Source of the DNA: Dehalococcoidia bacterium | GTDB lineage: Bacteria; Chloroflexota; Dehalococcoidia; Lucifugimonadales; UBA3495 | NCBI GenBank assembly: GCA_034423195.1 | Contig: DAOUIZ010000051.1 | Coordinates: forward strand, 56,174 to 120,173 | DNA length: 64,000 bases | Direction: 5' to 3' | In this document: positions 3,731 to 40,970 of the stretch, in pieces | How the letters are laid out: the number at the start of each line of letters is the position of its first letter | Numbering within the stretch: position 1 is the stretch's first letter | Made by a program: the position numbers and the translations under genes | The notes under the pieces: generated by a model | Seen by the model: the letters and a program-made list of their open reading frames with translations, nothing else | What the model was told of the DNA's origin: nothing | Database searches by the model: none

Positions 3731-3912
3731 ACGTTCAACAAAGGGAATGTCCCTCTGCCCACGTTCAAACATCGCAAAAATGTCCCGAAATGTCTCAGAG
3801 TGTCTCAACCACGCCCCGGTCGTGTCCCGGAAACGGCGCAAGCGGAGCCCAATTTGGCGCGAATGTCCCGTGGATTCAAGGAGTTTTGAGCACGAAAGCG
3901 CCAAAATGTCCC
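3731..3912 (+). promoter_or_regulatory. array of seven same-strand AATGTC[CT]C sites, helically phased
   Basis: TGTCCC or TGTCTC starts at 3748, 3781, 3791, 3801, 3823, 3864 and 3907. Spacings are 33, 10, 10, 22, 41 and 43 nt, close to multiples of 10-11. Two longer units ACGTTCAA-N-AATGTCCC at 3731-3753 and 3761-3786. Region is non-coding and about 50% GC. Confidence 0.5.
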
Positions 3913-3980: not shown

Positions 3981-4009
3981 TTGACGTTGCCGCCACCACT
4001 GCGTACACT
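3981..4009 (+). promoter_or_regulatory. sigma70-like promoter for the fusion gene
   Basis: TTGACG (3981-3986), 17-nt spacer, TACACT (4004-4009). Implies a 5' UTR of about 160 nt before the ATG at 4176. Confidence 0.45.
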
Positions 4010-4175: not shown

Positions 4176-6245
4176 ATGGCGGGCTACCAGAAACATGAAG
4201 CGCAGGATTGGGCTTGGGAAAACCTGCGCGGGCAGTGGAGCACCCTCGTCACCCCTTTCACGCCCGACAAGTCCTTTGACGAAGACGGAATGCGCCGGAA
4301 CATCCGCCACATCCAGTCCCTCGGCACCCGCGGCGCCGGCTGCACCTGGGCCATGGGCGAGTTCTGGAGCCTCACCTTTGACGAGCGCAAGCATGTCATG
4401 TCCACCGTCGCCGATGAGTCCATCGGAAGGTGGCTGTCCGGCGCCCACGTCACCCACACCTCCACCCGCGAAATGCTGGCCCTCGCCGAACACGCCGAGC
4501 AGGTTGGAATCGACCTTCTCATGGTGGCCCCGCCCTACATGGTCGCCAAGACCGAGGACCAGGTCTTCGAGTACGTGAAACTGCTGGCCGACCACACGAA
4601 CCTGGCCATCATGTTCTACAACTCCCCCCAGTTCGGCTTCATCATGAGTCCCCAGGGACTGAACCGCCTCTGCCAGATTCCCAACGTTGTCGGCGTCAAG
4701 GAAGCCAGCTTCAACCAGCAGACCTCCATCGAGACCCACCTCCTGGTCGGCAAGAGGGCCATCATCAGCACCCCCGACGAGTGGATCTTCCCCAAGGCCC
4801 AGGAACTCGGCTTCCACCAGCAGGTCATGTTTGCCAACACCTCCGACTGGCGCTTCGACACCTCCGACGCCAACTACTACGTCCAGTTCATCGACCGCGC
4901 CACCAGCGGCGACCTCGACCTCGACTTCTACAACGCCCACCTCAAGGACCTCAAGGCCCTTTCCGACAAGTGGTGGGGCGGCACCGTCAAGAAGTACAAC
5001 GGCGTAATCCCCACCACCATGTGCAAGTATTGGGGCGAGCTTATGGGAATGGCCGGCGGCGGCGTCCGCCATCCCCTCATCGACATGACCGCCGACGAAA
5101 AGGCCGAGCTCAAGAGCGAGTTGACCCCGCTTATTCCTCAGCCGGAACCCGCACGGGTTCCCGCCCGCGCCCGGTCTCATGCCTCTTGGCTCAACGAGAA
5201 GAGCCAGCGCGAAGTCGACTTCTCCGGCATGATGCTCCTCGTCAGTGTCCAGAACATGGAGGAAGCCCTCGAAGCCGACCGCGGCGGCGCCGACATCATC
5301 GACGTCAAGAACCTCCAGGAAGCCCTCGTCGGCTCCGGCCACCCCGACCTGGTTGAAGCCGTCCGCGAGCGCATTCCCGAGGAAAAGCACGTCAGCGTCA
5401 CCCTCGGCGTCGTCCCCAACCAGGCTGGAACCGTCGCCATGGCTGTCCGCGCCGCCGGTATGCTCGACGCCACCTCCGTCAAGGTCGGATTCTGCGAGAC
5501 CGACTACGACTCGGCCCTGGAGGTCCTTCGCGAGTCCCGCCGCGCCCTCAAGGGATTTGACACCAAGCTCATCGGCTCTCTCTTCGCCGACAACCAACTC
5601 TTCGGCGGCCTCGAACCCCGCCAGATGGTCAAGCTTGCCCGCGAAAGCGAGTGCGACGGTTTCCTTATCGACACCCTGACCAAGGACGGCCGCAACCTCT
5701 TCGACTTCATCCCCGAGCCCGAACTCCGTGAGATGGTCATGGAAGCCAAGCAGTACGGCCTCAGCACCGCCCTATCCGGCCACCTCCGCCTCAGCGACCT
5801 TGACGAGCTCGCCCGGATTAACCCCGACATCGTCGGCGTCCGTGGCGCGGTCTGCCGCAGCGGCGAGCGGGAAGCCGCCGTCGCCGCCGAGGCCGTCGCC
5901 CACTTCAAGCACGAGCTCGACCTCCGCAAGACCGGCATCATCGACCCCCGCGCCAACGGCAACGGCCACAGCAACGGGATCGCCGCCGCACCCAACGGCT
6001 CCCACGCCGGGGGATGGGCCGTCGTCGACGGCCGGGGCAAGAACTGCGCCGGAGTCATCGCCGCTCTCACCCGCCAGATTGACAACGACGGCCACTCCTT
6101 CGTCGAAGCCATCCTCCACGACGCCCTGAACATCTACGACGTCCTCTACTGGGCCGAGCAGGCCGGCCACAAGCTCATCACCCAGCGCCGGGAGGATGGC
6201 GGCCTGGTCCGCGTCCTCATCCAACCCGGCGCCAACGGACGCTAA
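4176..6245 (+). CDS. tri-domain fusion: DapA/NAL-family class I aldolase + MfnB-like (DUF556) domain + TusA/SirA-like C-terminal domain
   Basis: ATG at 4176, 5 nt after RBS AAGAAGGTGA. N-terminal domain: AMGEFWSLTFDERK, MFYNSPQ and Schiff-base Lys context VVGVKEAS. Middle domain (from about 5229): LLVSVQNMEEALEADRGGADIIDVKN, KVGF, IDTLTKDGRNLFDF, ALSGH, DIVGVRGAVC. Tail (from about 6010): GKNCAGVIAAL. Confidence 0.8.
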   Translation: MAGYQKHEAQDWAWENLRGQWSTLVTPFTPDKSFDEDGMRRNIRHIQSLGTRGAGCTWAMGEFWSLTFDERKHVMSTVADESIGRWLSGAHVTHTSTREMLALAEHAEQVGIDLLMVAPPYMVAKTEDQVFEYVKLLADHTNLAIMFYNSPQFGFIMSPQGLNRLCQIPNVVGVKEASFNQQTSIETHLLVGKRAIISTPDEWIFPKAQELGFHQQVMFANTSDWRFDTSDANYYVQFIDRATSGDLDLDFYNAHLKDLKALSDKWWGGTVKKYNGVIPTTMCKYWGELMGMAGGGVRHPLIDMTADEKAELKSELTPLIPQPEPARVPARARSHASWLNEKSQREVDFSGMMLLVSVQNMEEALEADRGGADIIDVKNLQEALVGSGHPDLVEAVRERIPEEKHVSVTLGVVPNQAGTVAMAVRAAGMLDATSVKVGFCETDYDSALEVLRESRRALKGFDTKLIGSLFADNQLFGGLEPRQMVKLARESECDGFLIDTLTKDGRNLFDFIPEPELREMVMEAKQYGLSTALSGHLRLSDLDELARINPDIVGVRGAVCRSGEREAAVAAEAVAHFKHELDLRKTGIIDPRANGNGHSNGIAAAPNGSHAGGWAVVDGRGKNCAGVIAALTRQIDNDGHSFVEAILHDALNIYDVLYWAEQAGHKLITQRREDGGLVRVLIQPGANGR

Positions 6246-6277
6246 CCCCCGTCCGGCAACCAGGCGGAGCCTTCAAG

Positions 6278-6301
6278 CCCCCGGCCTTCCTTGGCCGGGG
6301 G
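6278..6301 (+). terminator. intrinsic terminator after the fusion gene
   Basis: Stem CCCCCGGCC, loop ttcctt, stem GGCCGGGGG, followed by TTATTG. Lies 33 nt after the stop codon. Confidence 0.6.
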
Positions 6302-6345
6302 TTATTGCAAGGTGCGTCCCCACAATCCCGGAGCATTCTCTATAC

Positions 6346-6373
6346 AAGGGGGTCTGGGGGACGAGTCCCCCAG
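6346..6373 (+). repeat. REP-like element, copy 1 (AAGGGGGTCTGGGGGACGAGTCCCCCAG)
   Basis: Same architecture as 10369-10397 and 10931-10960: a G5 run, T-Y-Y, then a GGGGGA/TCCCCC hairpin. Confidence 0.6.
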
Positions 6374-6400
6374 CGCAACCCCGTCCCTCCGCACTCCCCG

Positions 6401-6430
6401 TTGACCCTCTTTTCCACCCCACCCTATAAT
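6401..6430 (+). promoter_or_regulatory. sigma70-like promoter of the Mo-hydroxylase operon
   Basis: TTGACC (6401-6406), 18-nt spacer, perfect TATAAT (6425-6430). Lies 65 nt upstream of the ATG at 6495. Confidence 0.55.
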
Positions 6431-6494
6431 TGCGCCACTCTCCCCAGCCACCTACCCCCACTTCCCACCATGCGGGAAGGAAGGCAGAGGCAAT

Positions 6495-7418
6495 ATGCCC
6501 CGTTTCGAATACCTCGAACCCCAGACTCTCGAAGAAGCCCACTCCATGCTCCAGGAACACGGCAGCCGCGCCCGCATCGTCGCCGGCTGCACCGACTTCC
6601 TAGTCCGCTGGCGCACCGGCTTCTGGACCCCCGAGTTCGTGGTCAACCTCCTGCACATCCCCGGCCTGAACATGATTCGCTTCGATCCCACCGATGGACT
6701 GCGGATCGGCGCCCTCGTCACCATCCAGGACTTGGAGGACCACCCCGCCGTCCGTGAGCATTACCCAGCCCTCGCCACCGGCGCCACCTCCTTCGCCGGA
6801 GTCCAGGTCCGCAACCTGGCCACCGTCGGCGGCAACGTCTGCAACGCATCCCCCGCCGGGGATACCCTTCCCGCCCTCTTGGCTTTGGATACCCAATGCC
6901 GCATCAACGGCCCCGCCGGTGAGCGTTGGCTTCCCCTGGATGAACTATTCGCCGGCCCCGGCCGCACCAACCTGCAACCCGCTGAGATCCTGACGGAATT
7001 CCACCTGCCCGCGCCGCCGCCCAACAGCGGCTCCCTCTACATCAAGCACAGCCCCCGCGGCGCGATGGATATCTCCGCCGTAGGAGTCGCCTCTTGGGTA
7101 TCCCTGGAATCTCCCGGCGGTCCCTGCGTTGATGCCAGGATCGCCCTCGGCGCCGTTGCCCCCACCGTGATCCGCGTCCCATCCGCCGAAGCCGTGCTTC
7201 AGGGACAGACTCTCACCTCCGAAATCATCAACGCCGCTGCCGAGGAAGCCCAGCGCGTCGCCACGCCCATCGACGATGTTCGCGCCACCGGAAACTACCG
7301 CAGGTCCATCGTCGCCGTCCTTACCCGCCGCACTCTCCAGCACGCGGCAGCCATCGCCGGCGGCGCGGATACATCCTTCGCCGCCCAGCGCCGTCTCGCC
7401 ATTCAAACTGCTTTCTAA
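6495..7418 (+). CDS. xanthine dehydrogenase family, FAD-binding (medium) subunit
   Basis: CoxM/XdhB-like N-terminus FEYLEPQTLEEAHSMLQEHGSRARIVAGCTDF. ATVGGNVCNASPAGD motif. 307 aa. Confidence 0.9.
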   Translation: MPRFEYLEPQTLEEAHSMLQEHGSRARIVAGCTDFLVRWRTGFWTPEFVVNLLHIPGLNMIRFDPTDGLRIGALVTIQDLEDHPAVREHYPALATGATSFAGVQVRNLATVGGNVCNASPAGDTLPALLALDTQCRINGPAGERWLPLDELFAGPGRTNLQPAEILTEFHLPAPPPNSGSLYIKHSPRGAMDISAVGVASWVSLESPGGPCVDARIALGAVAPTVIRVPSAEAVLQGQTLTSEIINAAAEEAQRVATPIDDVRATGNYRRSIVAVLTRRTLQHAAAIAGGADTSFAAQRRLAIQTAF

Positions 7419-7477
7419 ACTACTCCCACTGACCCACTCCCACCGTTCCTGCCCTCGCGTGGCATAAGGAGACCGGA

Positions 7478-7951
7478 ATGAAGAAGCCCCTTCAGTTGAC
7501 CGTCAACGGAGAACTCCGCCAGATCTTCGTCGAAACTTACTATTCCCTCCTCGACACCCTCCGCGATGAGCTGCATCTCACCGGCGTCAAGAAGGGATGC
7601 GACGAAGGGGACTGCGGGGCCTGCACCGTATTCCTCAACGGCAAGCCCGTGACCTCCTGCATGGTTCTCGCCCACAACGCCCACGACTCCAGCGTCACCA
7701 CCATCGAGGGCCTGGGCTCGGTGGATTCCCTCCACCCCGTCCAGCAGGCCTTCGTCGACTACGGCGGCCTCCAGTGCGGCTTCTGCATCCCCGGCCTCAT
7801 AATGTCAGGAGCGGCCCTCCTGGACCGCAACCCCGATCCCACCGAAGAGGAAGTCCGCATCGCCATCGGAGGCAACCTCTGCCGCTGCACCGGATACTCC
7901 AAGGTGGTCCAGGCGATCCTCGCCGCCGCCGAAACCGCCCGTTCCCGCTGA
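7478..7951 (+). CDS. xanthine dehydrogenase family, (2Fe-2S) small subunit
   Basis: Plant-type cluster CDEGDCGACTV and second cluster QCGFCIPG...CRCTGY. RBS AAGGAG upstream. 157 aa. Confidence 0.92.
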   Translation: MKKPLQLTVNGELRQIFVETYYSLLDTLRDELHLTGVKKGCDEGDCGACTVFLNGKPVTSCMVLAHNAHDSSVTTIEGLGSVDSLHPVQQAFVDYGGLQCGFCIPGLIMSGAALLDRNPDPTEEEVRIAIGGNLCRCTGYSKVVQAILAAAETARSR

Positions 7952-7999
7952 CCCGAAACCCGGCGTCATCCCCAACCCTACCCGCCAAAGGAGACCGCG

Positions 8000-10282
8000 A
8001 TGGTTGAGTTCAAAGTCCTCGAGCAGAATCACCCCCGCGTCGACGGATTGGACAAGGTGACCGGCCGGGCCACCTACGCCGCCGACGTCTACCTCCCGGG
8101 GATGGCCTGGTGCAAGCTCGCCACCAGCACCCGGTCCCACGCCCGCATCGTCAGCATCGACGTTTCCCGGGCCCGCGAGCTACCCGGCGTCTACGCCGTC
8201 ATCACTGGCTCTGACTTCCCCGACATCCACTTCGGCTCCGGCGGCCTCAAGGACCGCTACGTCATGGCCCGCGACGAGGTCTACTACGTCGGCGAACCCA
8301 TCGCCGCCGTCGCCGCCGTCGACGAGATGACCGCCCAGGAAGCCGTCGACCTCATCCAGGTCGAATACGAGGACCTGCCCGTGGTGGTCGATGTCCTTGA
8401 CGCCCTCCGGGAAGGTTCCTCCACCGTCCATCCCGACCTCCCCGACTTCGAGGGATTCGGGTTCGCCCTCGGCGGAGAGAACGTCTGCACCCTCCTCGAC
8501 GCCGACCGGGGCGACGTGGACGCCGCCTTCCAGCAGGCCGACCTCGTCATCGAGGACACCTTCCGCAGCCAGGGCATCAACCAGGGCTTCCTTGAACCGA
8601 TGGCCTGTGTCGCCGGTGTCGAAGCCAACGGCCGCCTCACCGTCTGGGCCTCGACCCAGGGCCCCTACCAGGTCCGCGCCCAACTGGCTTCCGTGTTGGA
8701 TATGCCCCTCTCCAACATCCGGGTCATCCCCATGGAGCTGGGCGGCGGCTTCGGCGCCAAGCTGCGTCTTGCCTTCGAAGCCTACCCCGCCCTGCTGTCC
8801 ATGAAGACCGGACGCCCGGTCAAGCTGGTCAACACCCGCGAGGAGGTCTTCACCCTCAACGGTCCCCGCCTTCCCGTCGCCAACTACATCCGCTCCGGCG
8901 TCAACAGCGACGGAAAGATAATCGCCCGGGAAGCCTTCAGCGTCTTCGATGTCGGCGCCTACCTCGGCGCCGGCCCCAACTCCGGCGTCGGCCACGGATT
9001 GGGCGCCTACAACGTCCCCAACTTCCGTCTCCGCTCCTACGGCGTCTACACCAACAAGGTCTACGTCGGCTCCTACCGCGCCTCCGGCGTCGCCGACATG
9101 ACCTTCGCCGTCGAGTCCCACACCGACAACATCGCCCACAAGCTCGGCATGGACCCGGTCGAGTTCCGACGGATCAACTGCCTCCGGGAAGGCGACACCG
9201 CCGTCAACGGCTCCGCCATGCCCCGCAACGGCCTCCAGGAATGTCTCGACGCCCTCAAGGAGCGCCTTGACCTGCCGAAGAAGCTTGGCCAGCGCCGCGG
9301 TGTCGGCGTGGCCCTATGCGAGTGGCGCAGCGGCAGCGGCCCCTCCACGGCCTCGATAAGCGTCAACGAGGACGGTACCGTCAGCCTCCTCACCGGCTCG
9401 GTGGACATCTCCGGCAGCGACACCTCCCTGGCCGCCATCGCAGCCGAGACCCTCGGATTGCCCATGGAGCGCGTGATCGTCGCCAAGCGCGATACCGACC
9501 TCGCCCCCTTCACCGGCCCCAGCGGCGGCAGCCGCATCGTTTACAGCCAGGGAACCGCCGTCCAGCGCGCCGCCGAGGATGCCCGGGACAAGCTCATCGC
9601 CATCGCCGCCGACCGCTTCGGCGTCCCCGCCGATGCCCTCGCCTGCGAGGACGGAGCGGTGTTCGTCCAGGACAACCCGCCCCAGAAGCTGACCATCAGC
9701 CAGCTTGCCTCCATGAGTCTCAACTCCCGCGGCGGACCCATCATCGGCACCGCCTCCCTCTCCACCATGCCCTTCACCCCGGTTTACAGCGCCCACGGCG
9801 CCGAGGTCCTCGTGGATGAGGACACCGGCCAGGTCCGCGTCACCCGCTACGTTCAGGCCCAGGACGTCGGCACCGCCATCAACCCCATGGCCGTCGAAGG
9901 ACAACTCGACGGCGGAGCCGTCCAGGGCATCGGCCGCGCCCTCACCGAGGATATGCTCTTCGACCCCGAGACCGGCGCGGTGCGCAATCCCTCCTTTGCC
10001 ACCTACCTCATGCCGCTCGCTGTGGACCTTCCTGACATCGAGAACGTCCTCATCCGCGTCCCGGCTGAAGACGGTCCCTTCGGCGCCCGCGCCGTCGCCG
10101 AACCCCCCGGATTCGGGGCTCCCGCCGCCATCGCCAACGCCATCTACGACGCCGTCGGAGTCCGAATCAACGAAATGCCCCTGTCCGCCGAGCGCGTCCT
10201 CGCCGCCCTCCAGGGCCAGCCTGCCGCTGAAATCCCCATGGACGTGCAGGCTCTCAAGGAAGCCGAAGGACTCACCCCATAG
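8000..10282 (+). CDS. xanthine dehydrogenase family, molybdopterin-binding large subunit (not a form I CO dehydrogenase)
   Basis: 760 aa with aldehyde-oxidase/XDH a/b-hammerhead and MoCo-domain motifs (GGGFG, GSYRASG, EPPGFGAP). The CODH form I loop VAYRCSFR is absent. Confidence 0.9.
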   Translation: MVEFKVLEQNHPRVDGLDKVTGRATYAADVYLPGMAWCKLATSTRSHARIVSIDVSRARELPGVYAVITGSDFPDIHFGSGGLKDRYVMARDEVYYVGEPIAAVAAVDEMTAQEAVDLIQVEYEDLPVVVDVLDALREGSSTVHPDLPDFEGFGFALGGENVCTLLDADRGDVDAAFQQADLVIEDTFRSQGINQGFLEPMACVAGVEANGRLTVWASTQGPYQVRAQLASVLDMPLSNIRVIPMELGGGFGAKLRLAFEAYPALLSMKTGRPVKLVNTREEVFTLNGPRLPVANYIRSGVNSDGKIIAREAFSVFDVGAYLGAGPNSGVGHGLGAYNVPNFRLRSYGVYTNKVYVGSYRASGVADMTFAVESHTDNIAHKLGMDPVEFRRINCLREGDTAVNGSAMPRNGLQECLDALKERLDLPKKLGQRRGVGVALCEWRSGSGPSTASISVNEDGTVSLLTGSVDISGSDTSLAAIAAETLGLPMERVIVAKRDTDLAPFTGPSGGSRIVYSQGTAVQRAAEDARDKLIAIAADRFGVPADALACEDGAVFVQDNPPQKLTISQLASMSLNSRGGPIIGTASLSTMPFTPVYSAHGAEVLVDEDTGQVRVTRYVQAQDVGTAINPMAVEGQLDGGAVQGIGRALTEDMLFDPETGAVRNPSFATYLMPLAVDLPDIENVLIRVPAEDGPFGARAVAEPPGFGAPAAIANAIYDAVGVRINEMPLSAERVLAALQGQPAAEIPMDVQALKEAEGLTP

Positions 10283-11003: not shown

Positions 11004-13589
11004 CTAGCTCAGGGAGAACGTCGAACCATCCTCATCCTTCTGGACTTCAATCCGCACCGGAAACATATCCTTCAGATCGTCCAGGTGGGTGATGACGATG
11101 ATTTTGTCGAACTCGTCCTGTATCGCGCTGATAACGTCCAGGATGCGTTCCCGTCCCGACCCGTCCTGCGTCCCGAACCCTTCGTCAATGAACAGCGTCG
11201 GCAGCGGCGCCCCCATCCGTTGCGCCAGCACCTTGGATAGCGCAATCCGCAGCGCCAGGTTCACCCGGAACGCCTCACCGCCGCTGTACATCTCGTAGCT
11301 GCGGGGCCCCAGCTCATCGCTGACGTTTATCTCCAGCGTCTCTATCGCTTCCCCCCGTCCGCTGCGCCGTTCCCTCTGCGTCTCCAGCTTCACGTGCATC
11401 CGGTTGTCCGTCATCCGCCCCAGGAGCAGGTTGGCCTCCTCCTCCAGCCGGGGAACCACAGTTTCTATCAGCATCGCCTGGACGCCCTGCCTCCCGAACG
11501 CAGTCACCAGCTCCTGGAAGATGCTCTGCTCCTTCTCGTGCTCCCTCAACCGCCCCGAGTGCTGCTCCACGTCCCTCTGGACCTCAGCCAGCCTCTGCAC
11601 CTGTCCCTCCAGGTAGCCCTTGCGGGCCTGGTAGGATGCCCGTTCCCCGTCCCGTGCCGCCGCTTCCTGCTGGGCTTCCTCCAGGCGGCGTTCCAACCCC
11701 GGGAATCCCTCCAGGGATGCCTCAATGGCGCTCACCCGGGCCTCCAATTCTGCCAGTTCGTCCTTCCGGCGGCCCAGCAACTCCCGTGTCCGGTCCAGCG
11801 CCTCCTGTTCATCGGGAAGCCGCTCCAGGGCCAGCGCCAGTTCCCGCGACCGCGCTTCAAACCCCTGCAGTTCCTGGATTTCCTGGTAACTGTTTCGCCA
11901 GTCGGATTCCCGGTACGGCACCTCCCTCAGCCGCCCTTCCACTTTGTCCAGTTCCCCCATCTCCACAACAGCGAACCCTCCCGACTCCAACTCGGCCCTG
12001 CCCCGCGCCAGCTGTGGCTTCAACCTCCCCACTTCCTCCTGGGCTGCGTGGGATTCGGCCAGTTGCCGCTCCAGGTCCTGCAGCCCCAGCTGGGCATCCC
12101 GCCTTTTCTTCTCCAGGGCCAACTCCCGGACCGGCAGCGCCTTCTCCACTTCTTCCTGCTCCCCCTCCAGCCCCCTTAGCCTGGATCGGGCAGCCCGGAA
12201 CATTTCCCTCAGCTCTTCAACTTGAGACTCGTACTGGCTTGCCAACCGTCCGCACCCGTCCATCCCCAGCGGCGTTCCGCACAACGGGCAGACCGCCCCC
12301 TCCTCCGTGGGTTGCGCCAGAAGGTCCAGCTTGCCGCGAATCTCCTTCCCTTCTCTTTCATAGTGTTCCACCAGTCCCCTGGTTTCGCCGATTTGCGTCG
12401 CCAGCCCCCGTTGCCGCTCCCTCTCTAGCGCTATCCCCTGGTCCTCCTTTGCTAGGGACGCCAGCTCCCTCCGCCGCTCCTCTGCGGCTGCCGCCAGCTC
12501 GTGTTCCCCCGACGCCTTCGGGACTAATTCCTCGTCGATTCGCCGCGCCAACTGCGCCAGCTCTCCCTCCGCTTGGACTCGCTTCAAGGCGATCTCCTGC
12601 GTTAGCTCCTCCTTCCTCTTGTTCAAGGCCTCGTAGATGCCCCTCAGCTCTTCCAGTGCCCGGAATCGTTCCTGCGCTTCCCGGAGACGCTTCAACCCAT
12701 CGTTGATTTCGTCGGCCTTCTCGGCGATAACCCGGGATTCCCTCAACCGCCGCTCCATGCCGGAAACCTGGGATTCCAACTGGCGGATTTCCAGGTTTGC
12801 CCCGCCCAGGTTCCTGCGCAGATCGTCAAGTTCGGCTTGCCGTCTCAGGCCCGCATCAACGGCCTTCCTGGCTTCCTCCTCGGCTCTCCTGGCCGCGCCC
12901 AGCCTGGCTTCCACGTTTTCCAGCTGCCTTGCCGCCAGCTCCAGCTCCGATGCCGGGTCTCCTATCTGCTCAATCTGGGACCGGCCCTGTTCCACCAGGG
13001 CGGCGCTCTGAGCTGTCCCCACTCGCGCCCCTTCCAGCCTTCTCCGGGCCCGTTCCTGGTAGGTATCGTAGGCTTGCAGGTCCAACAGCGATGCCAGGAC
13101 TGCTTTCCGTTCCGCCGGCGTCTTGCTCGTGAACTCGTCCGCCCGCCCCTGCATCAGGAACGCCGAGTTTATGAACGTCTCGTAGTCCATCCCCGCCAGT
13201 TGCTCGATTTTGGCCTGCGTCTCCCGGACCGTGTTCCCGCCAACGGGTTGGGCGTCCCCCCCGTTCAGCGACTGCAATTGCAGGTCCGTTGCCCCCGGAC
13301 GGTTCCGTCCCCTCGCCCGGGAATGGCTCCGGATCACCCGGAACAGGTCGCCCCGGGACAGGAACTCCAGCTCTACACGCGCTTCGGGAGCGCCATAGTT
13401 GATCAGCTCGTCCTGTGTGCGTCCTCGCGCCTTCCCCCACAGGCACCAGGTAATGGCATCCAGCAGCGCCGACTTCCCGTGCCCATTGTTCCCGCACAGG
13501 CAGGCCACGTGAACGCCTGTCAGGTCCAGCGTCGGAGCGCCCTCCCGGTAGGACAGGAAGTTCTTTACGGATAGCTTCACGGGGATCAT
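11004..13589 (-). CDS. sbcC: SbcC/Rad50-family ATPase with coiled coil and CxxC zinc hook
   Basis: Walker A CGNNGHGKSALLDAITW. Long Glu/Arg/Leu-rich coiled coil with a central hook VCPLCGTP. Signature YSGGEAFRVNLALR and Walker B LFIDEGFG. Confidence 0.88.
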   Translation of the reverse strand: MIPVKLSVKNFLSYREGAPTLDLTGVHVACLCGNNGHGKSALLDAITWCLWGKARGRTQDELINYGAPEARVELEFLSRGDLFRVIRSHSRARGRNRPGATDLQLQSLNGGDAQPVGGNTVRETQAKIEQLAGMDYETFINSAFLMQGRADEFTSKTPAERKAVLASLLDLQAYDTYQERARRRLEGARVGTAQSAALVEQGRSQIEQIGDPASELELAARQLENVEARLGAARRAEEEARKAVDAGLRRQAELDDLRRNLGGANLEIRQLESQVSGMERRLRESRVIAEKADEINDGLKRLREAQERFRALEELRGIYEALNKRKEELTQEIALKRVQAEGELAQLARRIDEELVPKASGEHELAAAAEERRRELASLAKEDQGIALERERQRGLATQIGETRGLVEHYEREGKEIRGKLDLLAQPTEEGAVCPLCGTPLGMDGCGRLASQYESQVEELREMFRAARSRLRGLEGEQEEVEKALPVRELALEKKRRDAQLGLQDLERQLAESHAAQEEVGRLKPQLARGRAELESGGFAVVEMGELDKVEGRLREVPYRESDWRNSYQEIQELQGFEARSRELALALERLPDEQEALDRTRELLGRRKDELAELEARVSAIEASLEGFPGLERRLEEAQQEAAARDGERASYQARKGYLEGQVQRLAEVQRDVEQHSGRLREHEKEQSIFQELVTAFGRQGVQAMLIETVVPRLEEEANLLLGRMTDNRMHVKLETQRERRSGRGEAIETLEINVSDELGPRSYEMYSGGEAFRVNLALRIALSKVLAQRMGAPLPTLFIDEGFGTQDGSGRERILDVISAIQDEFDKIIVITHLDDLKDMFPVRIEVQKDEDGSTFSLS

Positions 13590-13788
13590 CGTCAGGTCTC
13601 CCGAACGCGGTGGCTTCGGCCCGTCATCTCTGAAATTCTAACACCCCGCTTTCCCGCCGCCGCTGCAGCGTCCCGAACCTGCCCTGAACATGGTAAACTC
13701 CGGGTAGTCGGCTTCGAATAATCGAAAGCTGGTGCCGCTTTATGCAGTCCCCCAGCAGAAATTCTTGGCCGAACCGTCCAGCATAACG

Positions 13789-14559
13789 ATGGAAACCGCC
13801 GCAATTCCCATCATTGAAGCCGCCGACCTCCGCAAGACCTACGGCTCCCACCCGGCCGTGGACGGTGTCTCCTTCCACGTCCTACCCGGGGAAGTTTTCG
13901 GCATCCTCGGCCCCAACGGAGCCGGAAAGACCACCACCATCGAAATCCTGGAAGGAATGCGCCGTCCCGATAGCGGGACCGCTTTCGTCAACGGCATCAA
14001 CGTTGTCGATGACCCCCGCGGCGTCAAGTCCGTCATCGGAATCCAGCTCCAGTCCTCCGCCTTTTTCGACAAGCTTTCCCTTGCCGAAATTCTCTCCGTC
14101 TTTGCCTCCTTCTTCCGTCGCCGCGTTCAGCCGGCGGACATCCTCGCCCAGGTTGAAATGGAAGAACGCGCCAGGGCACGGTACAAGGACCTGTCTGGAG
14201 GCCAGAAGCAGCGTTTTTCCATCGCTGCCGCCCTCGTCAACGACCCGCCCATCCTTTTCCTCGACGAACCCACCACCGGCCTCGACCCCCAGTCCCGCCA
14301 TCACTTGTGGGAGCTCGTCCAGAAATTCCAGTCTCTGGGCAAGACCATCCTTTTGACCACTCACTACATGGAAGAAGCGGAGGAACTCTGCGACCGCGTC
14401 GCCATCATGGACCACGGTGAAATCGTCGCCCTGGACAACCCCGGCTCCCTCGTCGATGACCTCCTGGACCGTGGCTTCACCAAGCCTCACGTCGAACGCC
14501 AGGCCAACCTCGAAGACGTATTCCTTGACCTCACCGGCCGGCAGTTGCGGGACGGCTGA
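13789..14559 (+). CDS. ABC transporter ATP-binding protein
   Basis: Walker A GPNGAGKTT, signature LSGGQKQR, Walker B ILFLDEPT. Start trimmed to METAAIP. Confidence 0.9.
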   Translation: METAAIPIIEAADLRKTYGSHPAVDGVSFHVLPGEVFGILGPNGAGKTTTIEILEGMRRPDSGTAFVNGINVVDDPRGVKSVIGIQLQSSAFFDKLSLAEILSVFASFFRRRVQPADILAQVEMEERARARYKDLSGGQKQRFSIAAALVNDPPILFLDEPTTGLDPQSRHHLWELVQKFQSLGKTILLTTHYMEEAEELCDRVAIMDHGEIVALDNPGSLVDDLLDRGFTKPHVERQANLEDVFLDLTGRQLRDG

Positions 14560-14561
14560 CT

Positions 14562-15644
14562 TTGCTCTCCAACCCCACCCTCGTCCTCACCGTCGCCTCC
14601 ATGAAGATGTGGTTCCGCGACCGTCAGGCCCTCTTCTGGAACCTCTTCCTCCCCCTCCTCCTGATGGTCATCTTCGGCCTGTTCAACTTCGGCTCCTTCG
14701 GCCGGATTGACCTTGGCGTGGTTGACCACGCCGCCAACCGCGAGTCCCGCGCCCTCGTCGCCCTTCTCGAAGCCTCCGAGGGATTCAACGTCGCTCCCGG
14801 GGACAGCGAGGATTCCGAGATCCAGGCCGTTGGCGCTGGAAAGCGCGACCTCGTTCTGATTATCCCCGCCGACTTCACCGTTGAGGGCGACCCCATCCCC
14901 CTGAAAGTCCTCTACAACCAGGGCCGTCCCCGGGAATCCGAAGTCGGACAGGCCGTTCTGACCCGCATCCTCGACGAGATGACCTTCCAGTTCGGCGACG
15001 CCTCCCGGCTTTTCGTCTTTCACGCCGAGCCCGTGGACAGCCGACGCCTCCGCTACATCGACTTCCTGACCCCCGGGATCATCGCCCTGGCCATCATGCA
15101 GATGGGACTGTTCAGCGTCGCCTTCGCCTTCGTCCAGCTCAAGCGCCAGGGAATCCTCCGCCGCATGTTCGCCACTCCCGTCAGCCCGGCTTCTTTCCTC
15201 GTCTCCTACTCCGCCACCCGCCTCGTCGTCTCCATCATGCAGACCCTGGTACTCATCGGAGTGGCCATCCTCCTCTTCGACGTCCAGGTGGTCGGAAACA
15301 TCCTCTCCCTCCTGGCCGTTGCCCTCCTCGGCGGCGCCGTGTTCATCACCCTCGGATTCGCCGTCTCCGGCTGGGCTCGCACCGAGGAAGTTGCCGCCCC
15401 CTTGGCCAACGTCGTCTCCCTCCCCATGATGTTCCTGTCGGGAATTTTCTTTCCCCGCGAGGTCATGCCCGAATTCCTCCAGTCCATCACCGACTACCTG
15501 CCCCTGACCTACCTCGCCGACGCCATGCGCAGCATCTCCGTCGATGGCGCCGCCCTCTGGTCCCAGTGGTATAACCTGGCCGGACTCGCCGCCTGGCTCA
15601 TCGTCAGCTTCGCCCTTGCCGTCTGGCTCTTCCGCTGGGAATAA
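14562..15644 (+). CDS. ABC-2 type transporter permease
   Basis: 360 aa. One N-terminal TM helix, an extracytoplasmic loop, then five TM helices. Starts 2 nt after the ATPase gene. Confidence 0.85.
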   Translation: MLSNPTLVLTVASMKMWFRDRQALFWNLFLPLLLMVIFGLFNFGSFGRIDLGVVDHAANRESRALVALLEASEGFNVAPGDSEDSEIQAVGAGKRDLVLIIPADFTVEGDPIPLKVLYNQGRPRESEVGQAVLTRILDEMTFQFGDASRLFVFHAEPVDSRRLRYIDFLTPGIIALAIMQMGLFSVAFAFVQLKRQGILRRMFATPVSPASFLVSYSATRLVVSIMQTLVLIGVAILLFDVQVVGNILSLLAVALLGGAVFITLGFAVSGWARTEEVAAPLANVVSLPMMFLSGIFFPREVMPEFLQSITDYLPLTYLADAMRSISVDGAALWSQWYNLAGLAAWLIVSFALAVWLFRWE

Positions 15645-15748
15645 CCCGTTCCCGGCCCTGTCCTCCCGGCCCCCTGCTGACAATTGCCCCTTTCCACATC
15701 CCCACCCCTTGGGCTAACATGGTAATAGAGAGAATTGCTCTGAAGTCT

Positions 15749-15925
15749 CGGTAGCGCCGCAGGGCTATCGCATGAAGTCTGACTCGCCCATTTCACCTCC
15801 TCTCCCGTCATTCCCGCGCAGGCGGGAATCCAGACCCCCGTCGTCCATTCCCCGCAATGTGGTGTTTACCATTCACTGGAAATCTGACCAAACTGGCACT
15901 CATGCGATAGCCCTCGGTAGCGCCG
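15749..15925. mobile_element. MITE-like non-autonomous element (154 bp) with flanking direct repeats
   Basis: Perfect 15-bp terminal inverted repeats AGGGCTATCGCATGA (15761-15775) and TCATGCGATAGCCCT (15900-15914). 11-bp direct repeats CGGTAGCGCCG at 15749-15759 and 15915-15925. Internal palindromic hairpin ATTCCCGC-gcag-GCGGGAAT at 15810-15829. No ORF inside. Confidence 0.45.
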
Positions 15926-16014
15926 TCCCTTCCCTGAACCAATGGGGCAAAATGATGCAAAAAGTAGCAGAGAATTTTCCCGCTCCCAACCCGTCTCTCC
16001 CCTTGGATCAGGGC

Positions 16015-16133
16015 GGACAAACCCGGACACAACCGTGACATTTCCCTGACAAACCCGGACAAAACCCGGACAATCCAGCCCCTCGGCCGGACCCGCTCCA
16101 CGCTCAAATGTCCCGAAATGTCCGCTTTTGTCC
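16015..16133. promoter_or_regulatory. opposed phased arrays of TGTCC-type sites (six reverse, three forward)
   Basis: [GT]GACA starts at 16015, 16025, 16036, 16047, 16057 and 16068 (spacings 10, 11, 11, 10, 11). After 41 nt, TGTCC starts at 16109, 16119 and 16129 (spacings 10, 10). 17-mer AAATGTCCCGAAATGTC (16106-16122) is identical to 3778-3794. Confidence 0.5.
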
Positions 16134-16204
16134 GGGTTTTCAGCCTCTTGGCCCGAACACCCTTCCCGCTGCCTTCAACGGAAGGCAGCCCCGGCCCGTT
16201 TTCC

Positions 16205-16234
16205 TTGACAACCCTTCGGGCACACTCATAAAAT
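16205..16234 (+). promoter_or_regulatory. sigma70-like promoter of the HMGL-like gene
   Basis: TTGACA (16205-16210), 18-nt spacer, TAAAAT (16229-16234). Preceded by hairpin CTGCCTTC-aacg-GAAGGCAG. Confidence 0.5.
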
Positions 16235-16331
16235 CCCGGCAATCGGCCGCAGGAAAACGGCCGCGCATTGGGCCTTGCCCGGATTCCCAGCCCCGTGTAA
16301 CCGCAAAAAACATACCCCCAAGGAGAAGCTT

Positions 16332-17516
16332 ATGAACCGCTGGCCTACGGTCCACTACAAGGAAGAAGGCATGCGTGAAGGCATGCAGATTGAGGACTCC
16401 AACATCGCCGTCGACGACAAGATCGAGCTCCTCGACGCCCTCTCCGAAACCGGCCTTCAGCAGATCGTCGTTGGCTCTTTCGTCAGCCCCAAGTGGACCC
16501 CCCAGATGGAACGCATCGACGAGATTGTCAGCCGGTTCACCCCCCAGCCCGGCGTCACCTACACCGCCTTGGCTCTCAATGCCCGCGGCGTCGAGCGCGC
16601 CCGCGCCTACTCTCCCCCTCTGACCATCGAGCGGGACGGGTTCCCCCGCCTCAACTGCCACATGTGCGACGTCTTCACCCGCCGCAACACCAACCGCACC
16701 CAGATGCAGGAAATGGAGCGCTGGCCCCAGATAGTCGCCCAGGCCCAGGAACTCAACATCAAGGAAGCCGGCATCGGCTGCAACGCCAGTTGGGGCTCCA
16801 ACTTCCTCGGCGGGTTTCCCGTCGACAGCCTCATGACCCTGTTCGAAAAGCAGCACGGGATGTGGGACGAGGTCGGCATCAACGTCGTAAGCTGCTCCAT
16901 GGGCGACCCCATGAGCCACTGCCGCCCCGACAAGGTTGAAGAGAGCCTGTACCGGGTCAAGGAGCGCTGGCCGGAAATCAACCACTTCCGCCTGCACCTC
17001 CACAATGGCCGCAACATGGCCCTTCCCTCCGCCTACGCCGCTCTCCGCACCCTCGGCCCCGAGGACACCCTCGAACTGGACGGCACCATCGGCGGATACG
17101 GCGGCTGCCCCTACTGCGGCAACGGCCGCGCCACCGGCATGGCTCCCACCGAGGACCTCCTCCACATGATGGAGGACATGGGCATCCCCACCGGCGTCGA
17201 TATCGACAAGCTCATCGACTGCGTCTGGATGGCCGAGCGCATCCTCGGGCGGGAACTCTACGGCCATGTGTCCAAGGCCGGCCCCCGGCCCAGGACTCCC
17301 GACCAGCTCTACGATATGAACATGCCCTTCGTGGAGACGCTGGAGCAGGCCCGCCACTTCAAGACCGGACCCGGCGCCTACGAAGGCGGCATCTACCCCT
17401 ACCGCGAGCCCATCACCAGCCCCTACCGCGACCGGGTGGAAGCCGGACAGCCGGCCTTCGACGACGCCAACGGCGACTTCCCCTGGAAGCAGGACTGGTT
17501 CCCCGCCAAGGACTAA
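16332..17516 (+). CDS. HMG-CoA-lyase-like (pyruvate carboxyltransferase/DRE-TIM) family lyase
   Basis: ATG 5 nt after AGGAGAAG. N-terminal EEGMREGMQ motif (equivalent of the E-x-R-D-G-x-Q motif). HLHNGRN metal site. 394 aa, longer than a canonical HMG-CoA lyase. Confidence 0.8.
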   Translation: MNRWPTVHYKEEGMREGMQIEDSNIAVDDKIELLDALSETGLQQIVVGSFVSPKWTPQMERIDEIVSRFTPQPGVTYTALALNARGVERARAYSPPLTIERDGFPRLNCHMCDVFTRRNTNRTQMQEMERWPQIVAQAQELNIKEAGIGCNASWGSNFLGGFPVDSLMTLFEKQHGMWDEVGINVVSCSMGDPMSHCRPDKVEESLYRVKERWPEINHFRLHLHNGRNMALPSAYAALRTLGPEDTLELDGTIGGYGGCPYCGNGRATGMAPTEDLLHMMEDMGIPTGVDIDKLIDCVWMAERILGRELYGHVSKAGPRPRTPDQLYDMNMPFVETLEQARHFKTGPGAYEGGIYPYREPITSPYRDRVEAGQPAFDDANGDFPWKQDWFPAKD

Positions 17517-40137: not shown

Positions 40138-40176
40138 CCCCCTCCCAGAGGGTGCGTGGCAAATACTCGGTGCCAT

Positions 40177-40296
40177 CCCGTCATTCCAGCGCCGGGCTCC
40201 GTGCGACAGCCGCTGGCGTTCAGACAAGCCTGCCCCCGCGCAGGCGGGGTTGCCTTGCGCCGACGGGGAGTCGCGACAAGGGGATCCAGACCCCCG
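40177..40296 (+). repeat. diverged, expanded copy of the core of the 15.8-kb element
   Basis: Shares CGTCATTCC ... CCGCGCAGGCGGG ... ATCCAGACCCCCGTC with 15807-15843, but extra sequence is inserted on both sides of the gcag-loop hairpin. Confidence 0.4.
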
Positions 40297-40454
40297 TCTG
40301 GTCCCCGTTCCGTGCGTTTCCAACTTCGGACAGTGCGTTCTCATACTCTTCAAGCGGCAATCTCTCCTCCAGAGACTGGTCTACCCTCCTTTCGGTTGTC
40401 GTGTCCCCCGGCAGATAAAGGCTTGGCCGAAATTTTTACTTTTCTCAAATTCTT

Positions 40455-40487: not shown

Positions 40488-40970
40488 GGCGGGGAGTCGG
40501 CGGGACCGGGTGGCCGCCGTCTCGTAGGATCGGGAGACCGGTCCGGCGGGAGGGAGGAAAGTCCGGGCTCCACCGGACAGGGTGCTGGGTAACTCCCAGG
40601 CTTCCGGCAGCGCCGGGAGACGGAAAGTGGCACAGAAACATACCGCCTCCAGTTCGAAATGGGAATGGGACAGGGGCTTACTCGAGCAACGGCGGGGACT
40701 GGCGGTAAGGGTGAAATCGGACGGTAAGAGCGTCCGGCCGTTGGCGGCGACGCCGCGGCGGCCAAACCCCACCTGGAGCAAGGCCGAATAGAGGGGCTAT
40801 GGGTGTCCGGCCCGCCCCCGGGTTGGCTGCTCGACCCCGATGGCAACATCGTACCCCTTTGGTGGTTTCCGTCATCCCCCTGGATGGCGGAGGGCTAGAT
40901 AGATGGTCACCACTCCGGCTCCGTGAGGGGCCGGGGGTTACAGAACCCGGCTTACAGGTCTCTCCGGCTC
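40488..40970 (+). ncRNA. rnpB: RNase P RNA, bacterial type A
   Basis: Universally conserved blocks present: GAGGAAAGTCCGGGCTCC, ACAGAAACATACCGCC, GGTAAGGGTGAAA, GGAGCAAGGCCGAATAG, GGCTAGATAGATGG, ACAGAACCCGGCTTAC. P1 pairing GGGGAG (40491-40496) with CTCTCC (40960-40965). End coordinates are accurate to about 10 nt. Confidence 0.9.

Follow-up and report, generated by a model that had tools for sequence, protein, structure and literature searches.

The window analyzed here, 64 kb of ordinary core chromosome (63% G+C) from an uncultured marine SAR202 (Dehalococcoidia) bacterium, contains two arrays of short repeats with a TGTCC-type core. The one at 16 kb is the main subject of this study and the one at 3.7 kb is its sister. 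SAR202 is an abundant group of uncultured marine Chloroflexota, and we know of no experimental work on its transcription control. The window codes for ileS, fpg, a DHDPS/MfnB-like fusion with a three-subunit molybdenum hydroxylase, sbcC, an ABC-2 exporter, an HMGL-like protein, a family III CoA-transferase, an H+-pyrophosphatase, trpA, RNase P RNA, nuo, sdh, mdh and icd. The 16-kb array lies inside a 687-bp spacer bounded on the left by the gene for the ABC-2 permease (14562-15644, plus strand) and on the right by the HMGL-like gene (starting at 16332, plus strand).

The 16-kb array is split up into two opposed arms, 41 bp apart when measured start to start. The distal, or left, arm (16015-16072, minus strand) comprises six units of 10-11 bp, with [GT]GACA starting on the plus strand at 16015, 16025, 16036, 16047, 16057 and 16068 (spacings of 10, 11, 11, 10 and 11). 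Its plus-strand letters are, unit by unit, CGGACAAACC CGGACACAACCG TGACATTTCCC TGACAAACCC GGACAAAACCC GGACAATCC; read on the minus strand, the unit is TGTC[CA] followed by two to three G/C and then an A/T tract (the TGTCCGGGTTT type). The proximal, or right, arm (16109-16133, plus strand) contains three TGTCC units with starts at 16109, 16119 and 16129 and exact spacings of 10 and 10, namely TGTCCCGAAA, TGTCCGCTTT and TGTCCGGGTT in that order. Every one of these coordinates and spacings is as the initial annotation of the window had it, being a direct reading of the sequence, and an independent run of Tandem Repeats Finder resolves 16014-16073 into 5.6 copies of an 11-bp unit.

Counting both strands, the array packs nine TGTC[CA] sites into 130 bp, whereas the next richest stretches of the window have four and 300 first-order Markov shuffles of the window reach maxima of three to six. 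All nine fall in one helical phase (Rayleigh R = 0.93-0.94 at a period of 10.3-10.5 bp), in agreement with what had been proposed from the spacings alone, and A3-4 or T3-4 tracts, likewise in helical phase, are present in almost all units. The orientation of the arms, originally called convergent, is a matter of convention—they converge when the unit is read as an A-tract followed by GGAC, as is done for the regulator BldC, and point apart when it is read as TGTCC.

Downstream of the array is a sigma-70-type promoter, TTGACA-18-TAAAAT (16205-16234, plus strand), which matches at 11 of 12 positions in the promoter scan and is the best in the region. Neither this promoter nor the 5' leader of the HMGL-like gene varies among the three closest genomes retrieved with that gene, L001, L002 and L003, and in two of these the conserved HMGL region reaches back no farther than about 10 bp upstream of the -35 hexamer. 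The L-numbers denote fetched loci of related genomes or other contigs: L001 and L509 belong to a single genome (CBDBDT010000001.1), L003 is CBDBDE010000002.1, L507 is ERZ23495034 scaffold_124, L504 and L506 are ERZ23495173 scaffold_85, and L508 is ERZ18545484 ptg001268l. Relative to the start of the -35 hexamer, the sites of the right arm are at -76, -86 and -96 and those of the left arm at -137, -148, -158, -169, -180 and -190; hence the distance of 76 bp first given between the last site and this promoter stands, with the end of the array 72 bp from an intact -35 hexamer. The presumed regulated gene (16332-17516, plus strand) specifies a protein of 394 amino acids with a Pfam HMGL-like domain (E = 8.7e-18). 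It reaches no NCBIfam cut-off, its match to HMG-CoA lyase being sub-threshold only, and its SAR202 relatives are named "citramalate synthase" at NCBI. Its 206 relatives share 82-98% identity with it, and every named lineage among them is Dehalococcoidia, Chloroflexota or a metagenome-assembled genome of the SAR202 cluster; no database record is identical to the exact protein of the window. The leader of this gene also contains a hairpin (16244-16263, CGGCCG-caggaaaa-CGGCCG) without a match in Rfam; across L001-L003, hardly any change is seen in the hairpin or in the rest of the leader.

The sister array (3748-3912, plus strand) is composed of forward sites throughout, with TGTCCC at 3748, 3781, 3823, 3864 and 3907 and TGTCT at 3791 and 3801. 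Its spacings of 33, 10, 10, 22, 41 and 43 bp are uneven and still give R = 0.94-0.95 at a period of 10.5-10.6 bp. It precedes the promoter TTGACG-17-TACACT (3981-4009, plus strand), relative to whose -35 start the sites are at -74, -117, -158, -180, -190, -200 and -233. This promoter is invariant or nearly so in all relatives and is present even where the sister array is absent (L383, L381 and L510). The initial annotation had likened the 76 bp at the 16-kb array to 74 bp here, and the comparison holds because the conserved promoter is at 3981-4009 and the last TGTCC of the sister array at 3907. The operon downstream (4176-10282, plus strand), assigned through Pfam and NCBIfam, begins with the fusion of DHDPS to a 4-HFC-P synthase (MfnB-like) and continues with the FAD, 2Fe-2S and molybdopterin subunits of an enzyme of the xanthine-dehydrogenase/CO-dehydrogenase family, in a gene order that is the same in L380 and L506-L509. 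The fusion gene itself occupies 4176-6245, with its DHDPS-family aldolase and MfnB-like domains in one polypeptide and the molybdenum hydroxylase next; this two-domain architecture has at least 501 homologs, mostly in Dehalococcoidia/SAR202 assemblies.

The two arrays share a register with respect to their promoters. At a period of 10.5 bp, the mean phase relative to the -35 hexamer is 9.2 for the 16-kb array and 9.4 for the sister array, and the 24 distinct site positions pooled from all genomes give R = 0.87, a value matched by none of 20,000 random sets. They further share the module CCACGCTCAAATGTCCCGAAATGTC (16096-16122, plus strand), which recurs in the cluster of sites at 10-bp spacing (the B cluster) of the 3.7-kb array. 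It includes an exact 17-mer, at 3778 and 16106, and the match extends further in the forms of the 3.7-kb region found in L506, L508 and L509. The module represents homology beyond the repeat core and is probably a local copy. As the similarity between the two loci is confined to it, the sequences suggest that the proximal arm of the 16-kb array was copied from an older sister array, while the distal arm may have grown by inverted amplification of a TGTCCGGGTTT unit. Other than at these two loci and their counterparts in related genomes, no motif array turned up in the DNA compared, which comprised the window, about 90 kb of non-redundant clade DNA and about 690 kb from other SAR202 loci. Within this DNA, the segment does not behave as a piece of a dispersed repeat, which the initial annotation had named as an outcome that would tell against it. 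A miniature inverted-repeat transposable element (MITE), which would have many copies at unrelated positions along with terminal inverted repeats and a target-site duplication, is rejected as an identity for the array on the same count.

The sister array is conserved in six genomes, namely the window, L507, L506, L509, L508 and L380, whose fusion genes show 92.8-96.5% nucleotide identity to that of the window. Across the five sites common to all six, 27 of 29 core columns are invariant, and of the other columns 107 of 207 (Fisher p = 1e-5); a direct comparison of the window with L380 finds 39 of 40 core positions but only 96 of 134 spacer positions identical (p = 2e-4). The invariant positions are those of the GTCC(C) cores, whereas the adjoining A/T tracts differ (CGAAA, CAAAG, GCTTT, GGGTT, CACAA and CTCTG). 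The B cluster ranges from a remnant to seven copies across genomes, with TGTCCCAAAG occurring five times over in L380. The proximal site stays at -74 in all six genomes despite four indels between it and the -35 hexamer. In L508 and L380 an extra unit appears at -84, and the distal sites otherwise located at -117 and -158 are here at -128 and -169, a shift of one helical turn. The array sits in a fully syntenic intergenic region, and of the two it holds the stronger sequence evidence.

The 16-kb array has a narrower distribution. Among 80 fetched orthologous loci it was found in L003 only; as 90% clustering in the search for HMGL homologs had hidden close relatives, further genomes were taken from the cluster members of the fusion protein, and these added L507, the nearest relative (96.5% nucleotide identity in the fusion gene), which also carries it. 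L507 keeps all nine cores and has a right arm identical to that of the window; of its three substitutions, two fall in one left-arm spacer and the third lies just ahead of the first unit. The array of L003 is about 91% identical to that of the window and has three mutated cores, two in the left arm and the third core of the right arm (T to C); the 30 nt around the first two proximal units are the same in both. The order of an ABC-2 gene followed by the HMGL-like gene is seen in the window, L507 and L003. In L504/L506, L508, L509 and L510, none of which has the 16-kb array, ffh follows the ABC-2 gene; in L508 this is read from a 271-bp tail with the same sequence downstream of the ABC-2 gene as in the ffh-type loci. 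L001 and L002 have the HMGL promoter with other neighbors and unrelated DNA ahead of it, and the synteny breakpoint falls at about 16190-16200, some 10 bp upstream of the -35 hexamer. The ffh gene after ABC-2 elsewhere, together with the unrelated DNA before the HMGL promoter, thus places the 16-kb array at a synteny junction, and the array is limited to one sub-lineage.

Taken together, these observations lead us to favor, with somewhat more confidence than doubt, the reading of the 16-kb segment as a lineage-specific operator array for a cooperatively binding helix-turn-helix (HTH)-type protein encoded outside the window. It is favored because of the helical quantization across gaps of 22-43 bp, the register common to two promoters, the phase-preserving indels and the invariant cores amid drifting spacers—traits which are expected of double-stranded DNA sites contacted on one face by a promoter-acting protein and are not expected of neutral slippage, an RNA element or curvature alone. 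The initial annotation had offered a nucleoprotein assembly site or upstream regulatory array, like that at 3.7 kb, and as an alternative an iteron cluster. The former fits all of the comparative evidence, namely the common register, the -76/-74 placement, the phase-preserving indels and the mostly invariant cores of the sister array. The latter is not supported: the surroundings belong to the core chromosome (ileS, fpg, sbcC, nuo, sdh and RNase P RNA) without similarity to plasmids or phages, the 64 kb contain no rep gene, neither a DnaA box nor an AT-rich unwinding element is nearby, the segment is G+C-rich, and its units are of 10-11 bp as against the 17-22-bp units of iterons, which are spaced about 22 bp apart.

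Under the operator reading, a sequence-specific protein with a helix-turn-helix or winged-helix domain, encoded outside the window, would bind as one protomer per helical turn and spread cooperatively along the array. It could thereby modulate the promoter from about -76 to -190, through contact with the RNA polymerase, bending of the upstream DNA or looping. The sister array ahead of the DHDPS/MfnB-fusion operon would be a target of this protein as well, in which case the two operons would be co-regulated, and the gain or loss of 10-11-bp units between strains would alter occupancy. Protein binding, the family of the protein, the co-regulation of the two operons and activation as against repression are each things that we infer.

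Several observations weigh against this reading. The 16-kb array is known from just three genomes (the window, L507 and L003), of which L003 is without exactly one whole 11-bp unit of the left arm. Comparison of the window with L003 shows no advantage of the cores over the spacers in conservation, 35 of 39 and 68 of 81 positions being identical, respectively (p = 0.58). In the sister array, the test of core columns that gave p = 1e-5 is limited to sites picked for their presence in all six genomes; with the variable B cluster included, 27 of 40 core columns are invariant as against 107 of 196 others (p = 0.16). The distal sites at 16 kb are oriented oppositely to those of the sister locus, and sites at -76 and farther out are remote for a simple activator. 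As for the protein, Pfam finds a DNA-binding regulator domain in none of the roughly 45 called genes of the window, with about ten open reading frames (ORFs) filtered on third-position G+C falling outside that scan. Searches by tblastn with BldC and a phage protein of the HTH_17 family gave no match in the window or L001-L088, which amount to a small part of the genome. Finally, phage DNA contains 10-bp-spaced arrays of unrelated 5-mers, used as control words, in numbers similar to those of TGTCC, with 60 loci for GTCTC x4 and at least 117 for CTGCT x4 beside at least 112 for TGTCC x4.

A bolder version, which we put forward with considerable doubt, is that the two loci represent a promoter-anchored 10.5-bp "lattice", with an occupancy tuned in natural populations by the gain and loss of units in whole turns and read by a small, filament-forming winged-helix protein of the BldC/Xis-like kind or by another oligomerizing regulator. 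If true, this would constitute an evolvable rheostat coupling a citramalate-synthase-like gene to an aldolase/molybdenum-hydroxylase operon, and its regulator would be one not yet described in Chloroflexota. Short of that, the arrays provide a testable cis-element with a core of TGTCC/GTCCC, a proximal site that starts 74-76 bp before the -35 hexamer and all sites on one helical face. Their geometry is unusually clear, and they supply two candidate target operons along with natural copy-number variants. Their DNA could be used as bait for the regulator, by DNA affinity purification sequencing (DAP-seq) or pull-down, or as a search pattern for a regulon.

The strongest of the competing explanations, which we still regard as unlikely, is a neutral minisatellite, in which functionless 10-11-bp units were spread by slippage with local inversion and duplication, and in which the phasing simply reflects the length of the unit. 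It would account for the variation in unit number among close genomes, seen both in the B cluster of the sister array, with 0-7 units, and in the 11-bp unit lost from L003, as well as for the conversion-like identity of the unit-1 spacer of L507 to that of unit 2. The decay of the L003 cores at 16 kb as fast as the spacers, and the confinement of the array to a narrow clade at a synteny breakpoint, point the same way. However, slippage leaves unexplained why isolated sites 41-43 bp apart should fall on one lattice, and why two unlinked arrays should hold the same register with their -35 hexamers. Nor does it explain the proximal site fixed at -74 across four indels, or the cores that remain invariant amid drifting spacers in six genomes.

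Intrinsic curvature is a second alternative: the phased A/T tracts would bend the DNA and so affect the promoter without a dedicated factor or by way of a general nucleoid protein. The A3-4 or T3-4 tracts in helical phase in nearly every unit are what it calls for, and recognition of the BldC type is itself partly a readout of the shape of AT-rich minor grooves (PMC5859096). The invariance of the GTCC(C) cores while the A/T tracts vary weighs against this alternative, and we consider it quite improbable. For the 16-kb array taken alone, both the minisatellite and the curvature-only readings are possible; they fit poorly with the data from the sister array.

A third alternative, to which we give very little weight, takes the repeats as secondary to a structured nucleic acid, with the opposed arms pairing as a long imperfect hairpin, be it an RNA near the 3' end of the transcript of the ABC transporter, a DNA cruciform or a palindromic mini-element. 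The plus-strand RNA folds with -53.1 kcal/mol (z = -4.05 against shuffles), and in the 28-pair outer helix L003 differs from the window by two compensatory double changes and two A-U to G-U changes, with no pair broken. Yet three substitutions in L507 break pairs in this very helix, the inner helices are not conserved, and the shuffle control is unremarkable (109/500). The two double changes are moreover 7 nt apart and could stem from a single template-switch event. The evidence for a conserved hairpin is thus mixed and not significant. In addition, the sister array has no inverted arm, helical quantization over gaps of 22-43 bp would be senseless for an RNA, no plus-strand U-tract terminator is present, and a known structured RNA is rejected for lack of any Rfam match at the gathering score or at E <= 1.

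The idea that the array is a relic or site of a mobile element, such as iterons or the integrase-arm or recombination-directionality-factor (RDF) sites left at a rearrangement junction, is hardly credible: very similar TGTCC arrays do occur on phage and mobile-element contigs beside integrases, HTH_17 Xis-like genes, primases and late activators, and the array does lie exactly where synteny with L001, L002, L504 and L509 stops, but the window has no integrase, replication, transposase or phage genes, BLAST against 72,556 plasmid and 50,697 phage records gives no match, DnaA boxes and an AT-rich unwinding element are lacking, and the sister array is in a fully syntenic intergenic region with both arrays locked to the phase of their promoters.

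The neighborhoods of the two arrays hold further features. Between the ABC-2 gene and the 16-kb array, a MITE-like insertion of about 150 bp (15747-15925) has 14-bp terminal inverted repeats, GGGCTATCGCATGA (15762-15775) and TCATGCGATAGCCC (15900-15913), flanked by a 13-bp direct repeat, CTCGGTAGCGCCG, at 15747-15759 and 15913-15925, with an internal hairpin ATTCCCGCGCAGGCGGGAAT. It is present in the window and L507 and not in L003, and short related fragments occur at 40176-40298. Next to it, the segment GGGGCAAAATGATGCAAAAAGTAGCAGAGAATTTTCCCGC (15944-15983) downstream of the ABC-2 gene is recognizably kept in L504, L508, L509 and L510, although ffh comes next there. It is possibly a 3'-end element or a small RNA; a scan also marks 15984-15966 as a weak terminator-like hairpin on the minus strand. 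Directly upstream of the fusion gene, at the place where fpg is otherwise found, L381 (1-9532) and L382 (1-9571), with 88% identity in the fusion protein, have a complete type I-E CRISPR-Cas locus, CRISPR repeats and a toxin-antitoxin pair of the RHH (ribbon-helix-helix)/ParE kind. In L510, the ileS and molybdenum-hydroxylase genes (5794-8908 and 13284-16086) are broken into several ORFs, which are either pseudogenes or frameshifts of long-read assembly. A palindrome like the repetitive extragenic palindromic (REP) elements, (A)GGGGGTTTGGGGGAT(G/T)(A/C)ATCCCCCAAC(G), recurs in intergenic regions of L383, L504, L508, L509 and L510 and is absent from the two array regions of the window. Elsewhere in the window, 40498-40970 specifies a bacterial class A RNase P RNA (208.5 bits).

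Arrays with the same core word are also found in phage and metagenome DNA. The 17-mer shared by the two loci matches eight viral contigs, most of them with further phased copies of TGTCC, while composition-matched 17-mers of period 10 gave two and one matches. Viral contigs with four to six TGTCC copies carry them beside DUF1492/Sigma70_r4 genes, HTH_17 genes and integrases. The control words show, however, that phage DNA is rich in 10-bp arrays whatever the word, and a specific widespread "TGTCC phage motif" is therefore rejected, TGTCC being at most modestly enriched. HTH_17 was likewise rejected as a specific neighbor—with a home-made hidden Markov model and a limit of 1.5 kb, such genes were found at 4-6 of 113 TGTCC loci as against 8 of 60 GTCTC loci. 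Given these counts and the HTH_17 genes beside the control arrays, the core word identifies no protein family. The upstream word CACGCTCAA, tried as a recurrent partner motif outside the clade, occurs at a single phage locus (L082), probably by chance. A metagenome scan for TGTCCC x3 yielded at least 120 loci in very mixed contexts, and among the matches listed there is no SAR202-like locus with a candidate regulator.

Two arrangements among these contigs merit description in their own right. Ten viral contigs of about 54-59% G+C (L104, L118, L126, L130, L133, L142, L153, L161, L186 and L187) have TGTCC x4, an interval of about 25-38 bp and GGACA x4. In L104 and L126 these convergent arrays are at the end of an ORF of about 815 amino acids, primase-polymerase-like as judged by its N-terminal sequence, and in L104 they are near a small ORF with the look of a ribbon-helix-helix protein; they are possibly an origin or an operator. 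The metagenome contigs L470, L477, L483 and L500 have TGTCCC(A/G)AAA x3 followed after 5-8 bp by AAAAGAT(C/G)GTTATT, a module that looks like a promoter in which an array replaces the -35 element. In at least L470 and L500 a G+C-rich hairpin comes after the module, which is found more than once per contig in both.

Among known operators, that of MraZ has a consensus of TGGGN repeats, at least three with 5-nt spacers upstream of mraZ/dcw. It is rejected here: the reverse complement of the 16-kb unit is CCGGACA, and there is no mraZ in the window. The Pho box, the site of the OmpR/PhoB family, has a TGTCA core, an 11-bp period and several tandem boxes. It differs in that its CTGTCAT-type 7-bp repeats are paired and replace the -35 element. 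Neither arrangement is seen in the window, where the -35 hexamers TTGACA and TTGACG are present with the nearest sites 74-76 bp upstream, and where the downstream genes are the HMGL-like enzyme and the aldolase-fusion/molybdenum-hydroxylase operon as opposed to the phosphate-starvation genes of the Pho box; hence it too is rejected. In known arrays of response regulators, the binding to phased sites is cooperative. The DosR box of the NarL/LuxR family (TTSGGGACTWWAGTCCCSAA) has the half-site AGTCCCSAA (PMC2275270), which matches TGTCCCGAA. It is however a 20-bp palindrome with GGGAC/GTCCC half-sites 4-6 bp apart, an arrangement not found here, as the sister sites are all direct and the nearest opposed pair at 16 kb is separated by 41 bp.

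The late activators of phages, the Ltr group, comprise RinA, ArpU, LtrA/Sigma70_r4, LtrB/DUF1492 and LtrC, which have HTH domains like sigma region 4. They use three to six direct repeats at a 10-bp spacing, which are needed for activation (PMC3753634), and many viral contigs have four to six TGTCC copies directly after a DUF1492/Sigma70_r4 gene. In the phages the repeats come right after the ltr gene and run up to the -10 element of the late promoter, taking the place of the -35 element, whereas here the -35 hexamer is intact and the nearest site is 76 bp upstream. An identity with the Ltr late-promoter repeats is rejected, the gene upstream being an ABC-2 permease with no ltr-like gene and the array stopping 72 bp before the -35 hexamer. 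The arrays bound by RDFs, such as the Xis proteins of lambda, L5 and Pukovnik, P2 Cox and RdfS, offer another parallel: small winged-helix proteins, some of them also regulators, form filaments on phased direct repeats; RdfS and Xis bind with about one protomer per 10 bp (PMC11963761) and share their fold with BldC. The phage loci L160, L192, L084 and L087 have TGTCC arrays beside int and HTH_17 genes. RDF sites are located in attP or beside int/xis, in contrast to the promoters of metabolic genes without a mobile context considered here.

The remaining parallel is with Streptomyces BldC, a MerR-like winged-helix protein of 68 amino acids (Pfam HTH_17; PDB 6AMA/6AMK), whose sequence we verified against 6AMA for use as a query. 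It binds head-to-tail on units of the TGTCCGAAT type, each protomer taking up about one turn, and can act as an activator or as a repressor (PMC5859096, PMC6428758). As in the window, its sites consist of a variable number of short direct repeats upstream of promoters (at -50 to -80 for whiI). The whiI units, TGTCCGAAT/TGCTCGGAT, as well as the optimized (TGTCCGAAT)n come close to being the same word as TGTCCCGAAA and TGTCCGCTTT. The units of our array have an A/T tract, then CCC/CG and then GGAC(A), as in AATTCGGAC; the BldC consensus AATT(N3-4)(C/G) is so loose that GC-rich DNA with A-tracts easily fits it. The BldC units are moreover of 9-10 bp as against 10-11 bp, come from another phylum, and have not been described in opposed arms like those at 16 kb. 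Phased direct-repeat operators are an already known class of element, of which the present array is most likely a lineage-specific example rather than a novel type of system.

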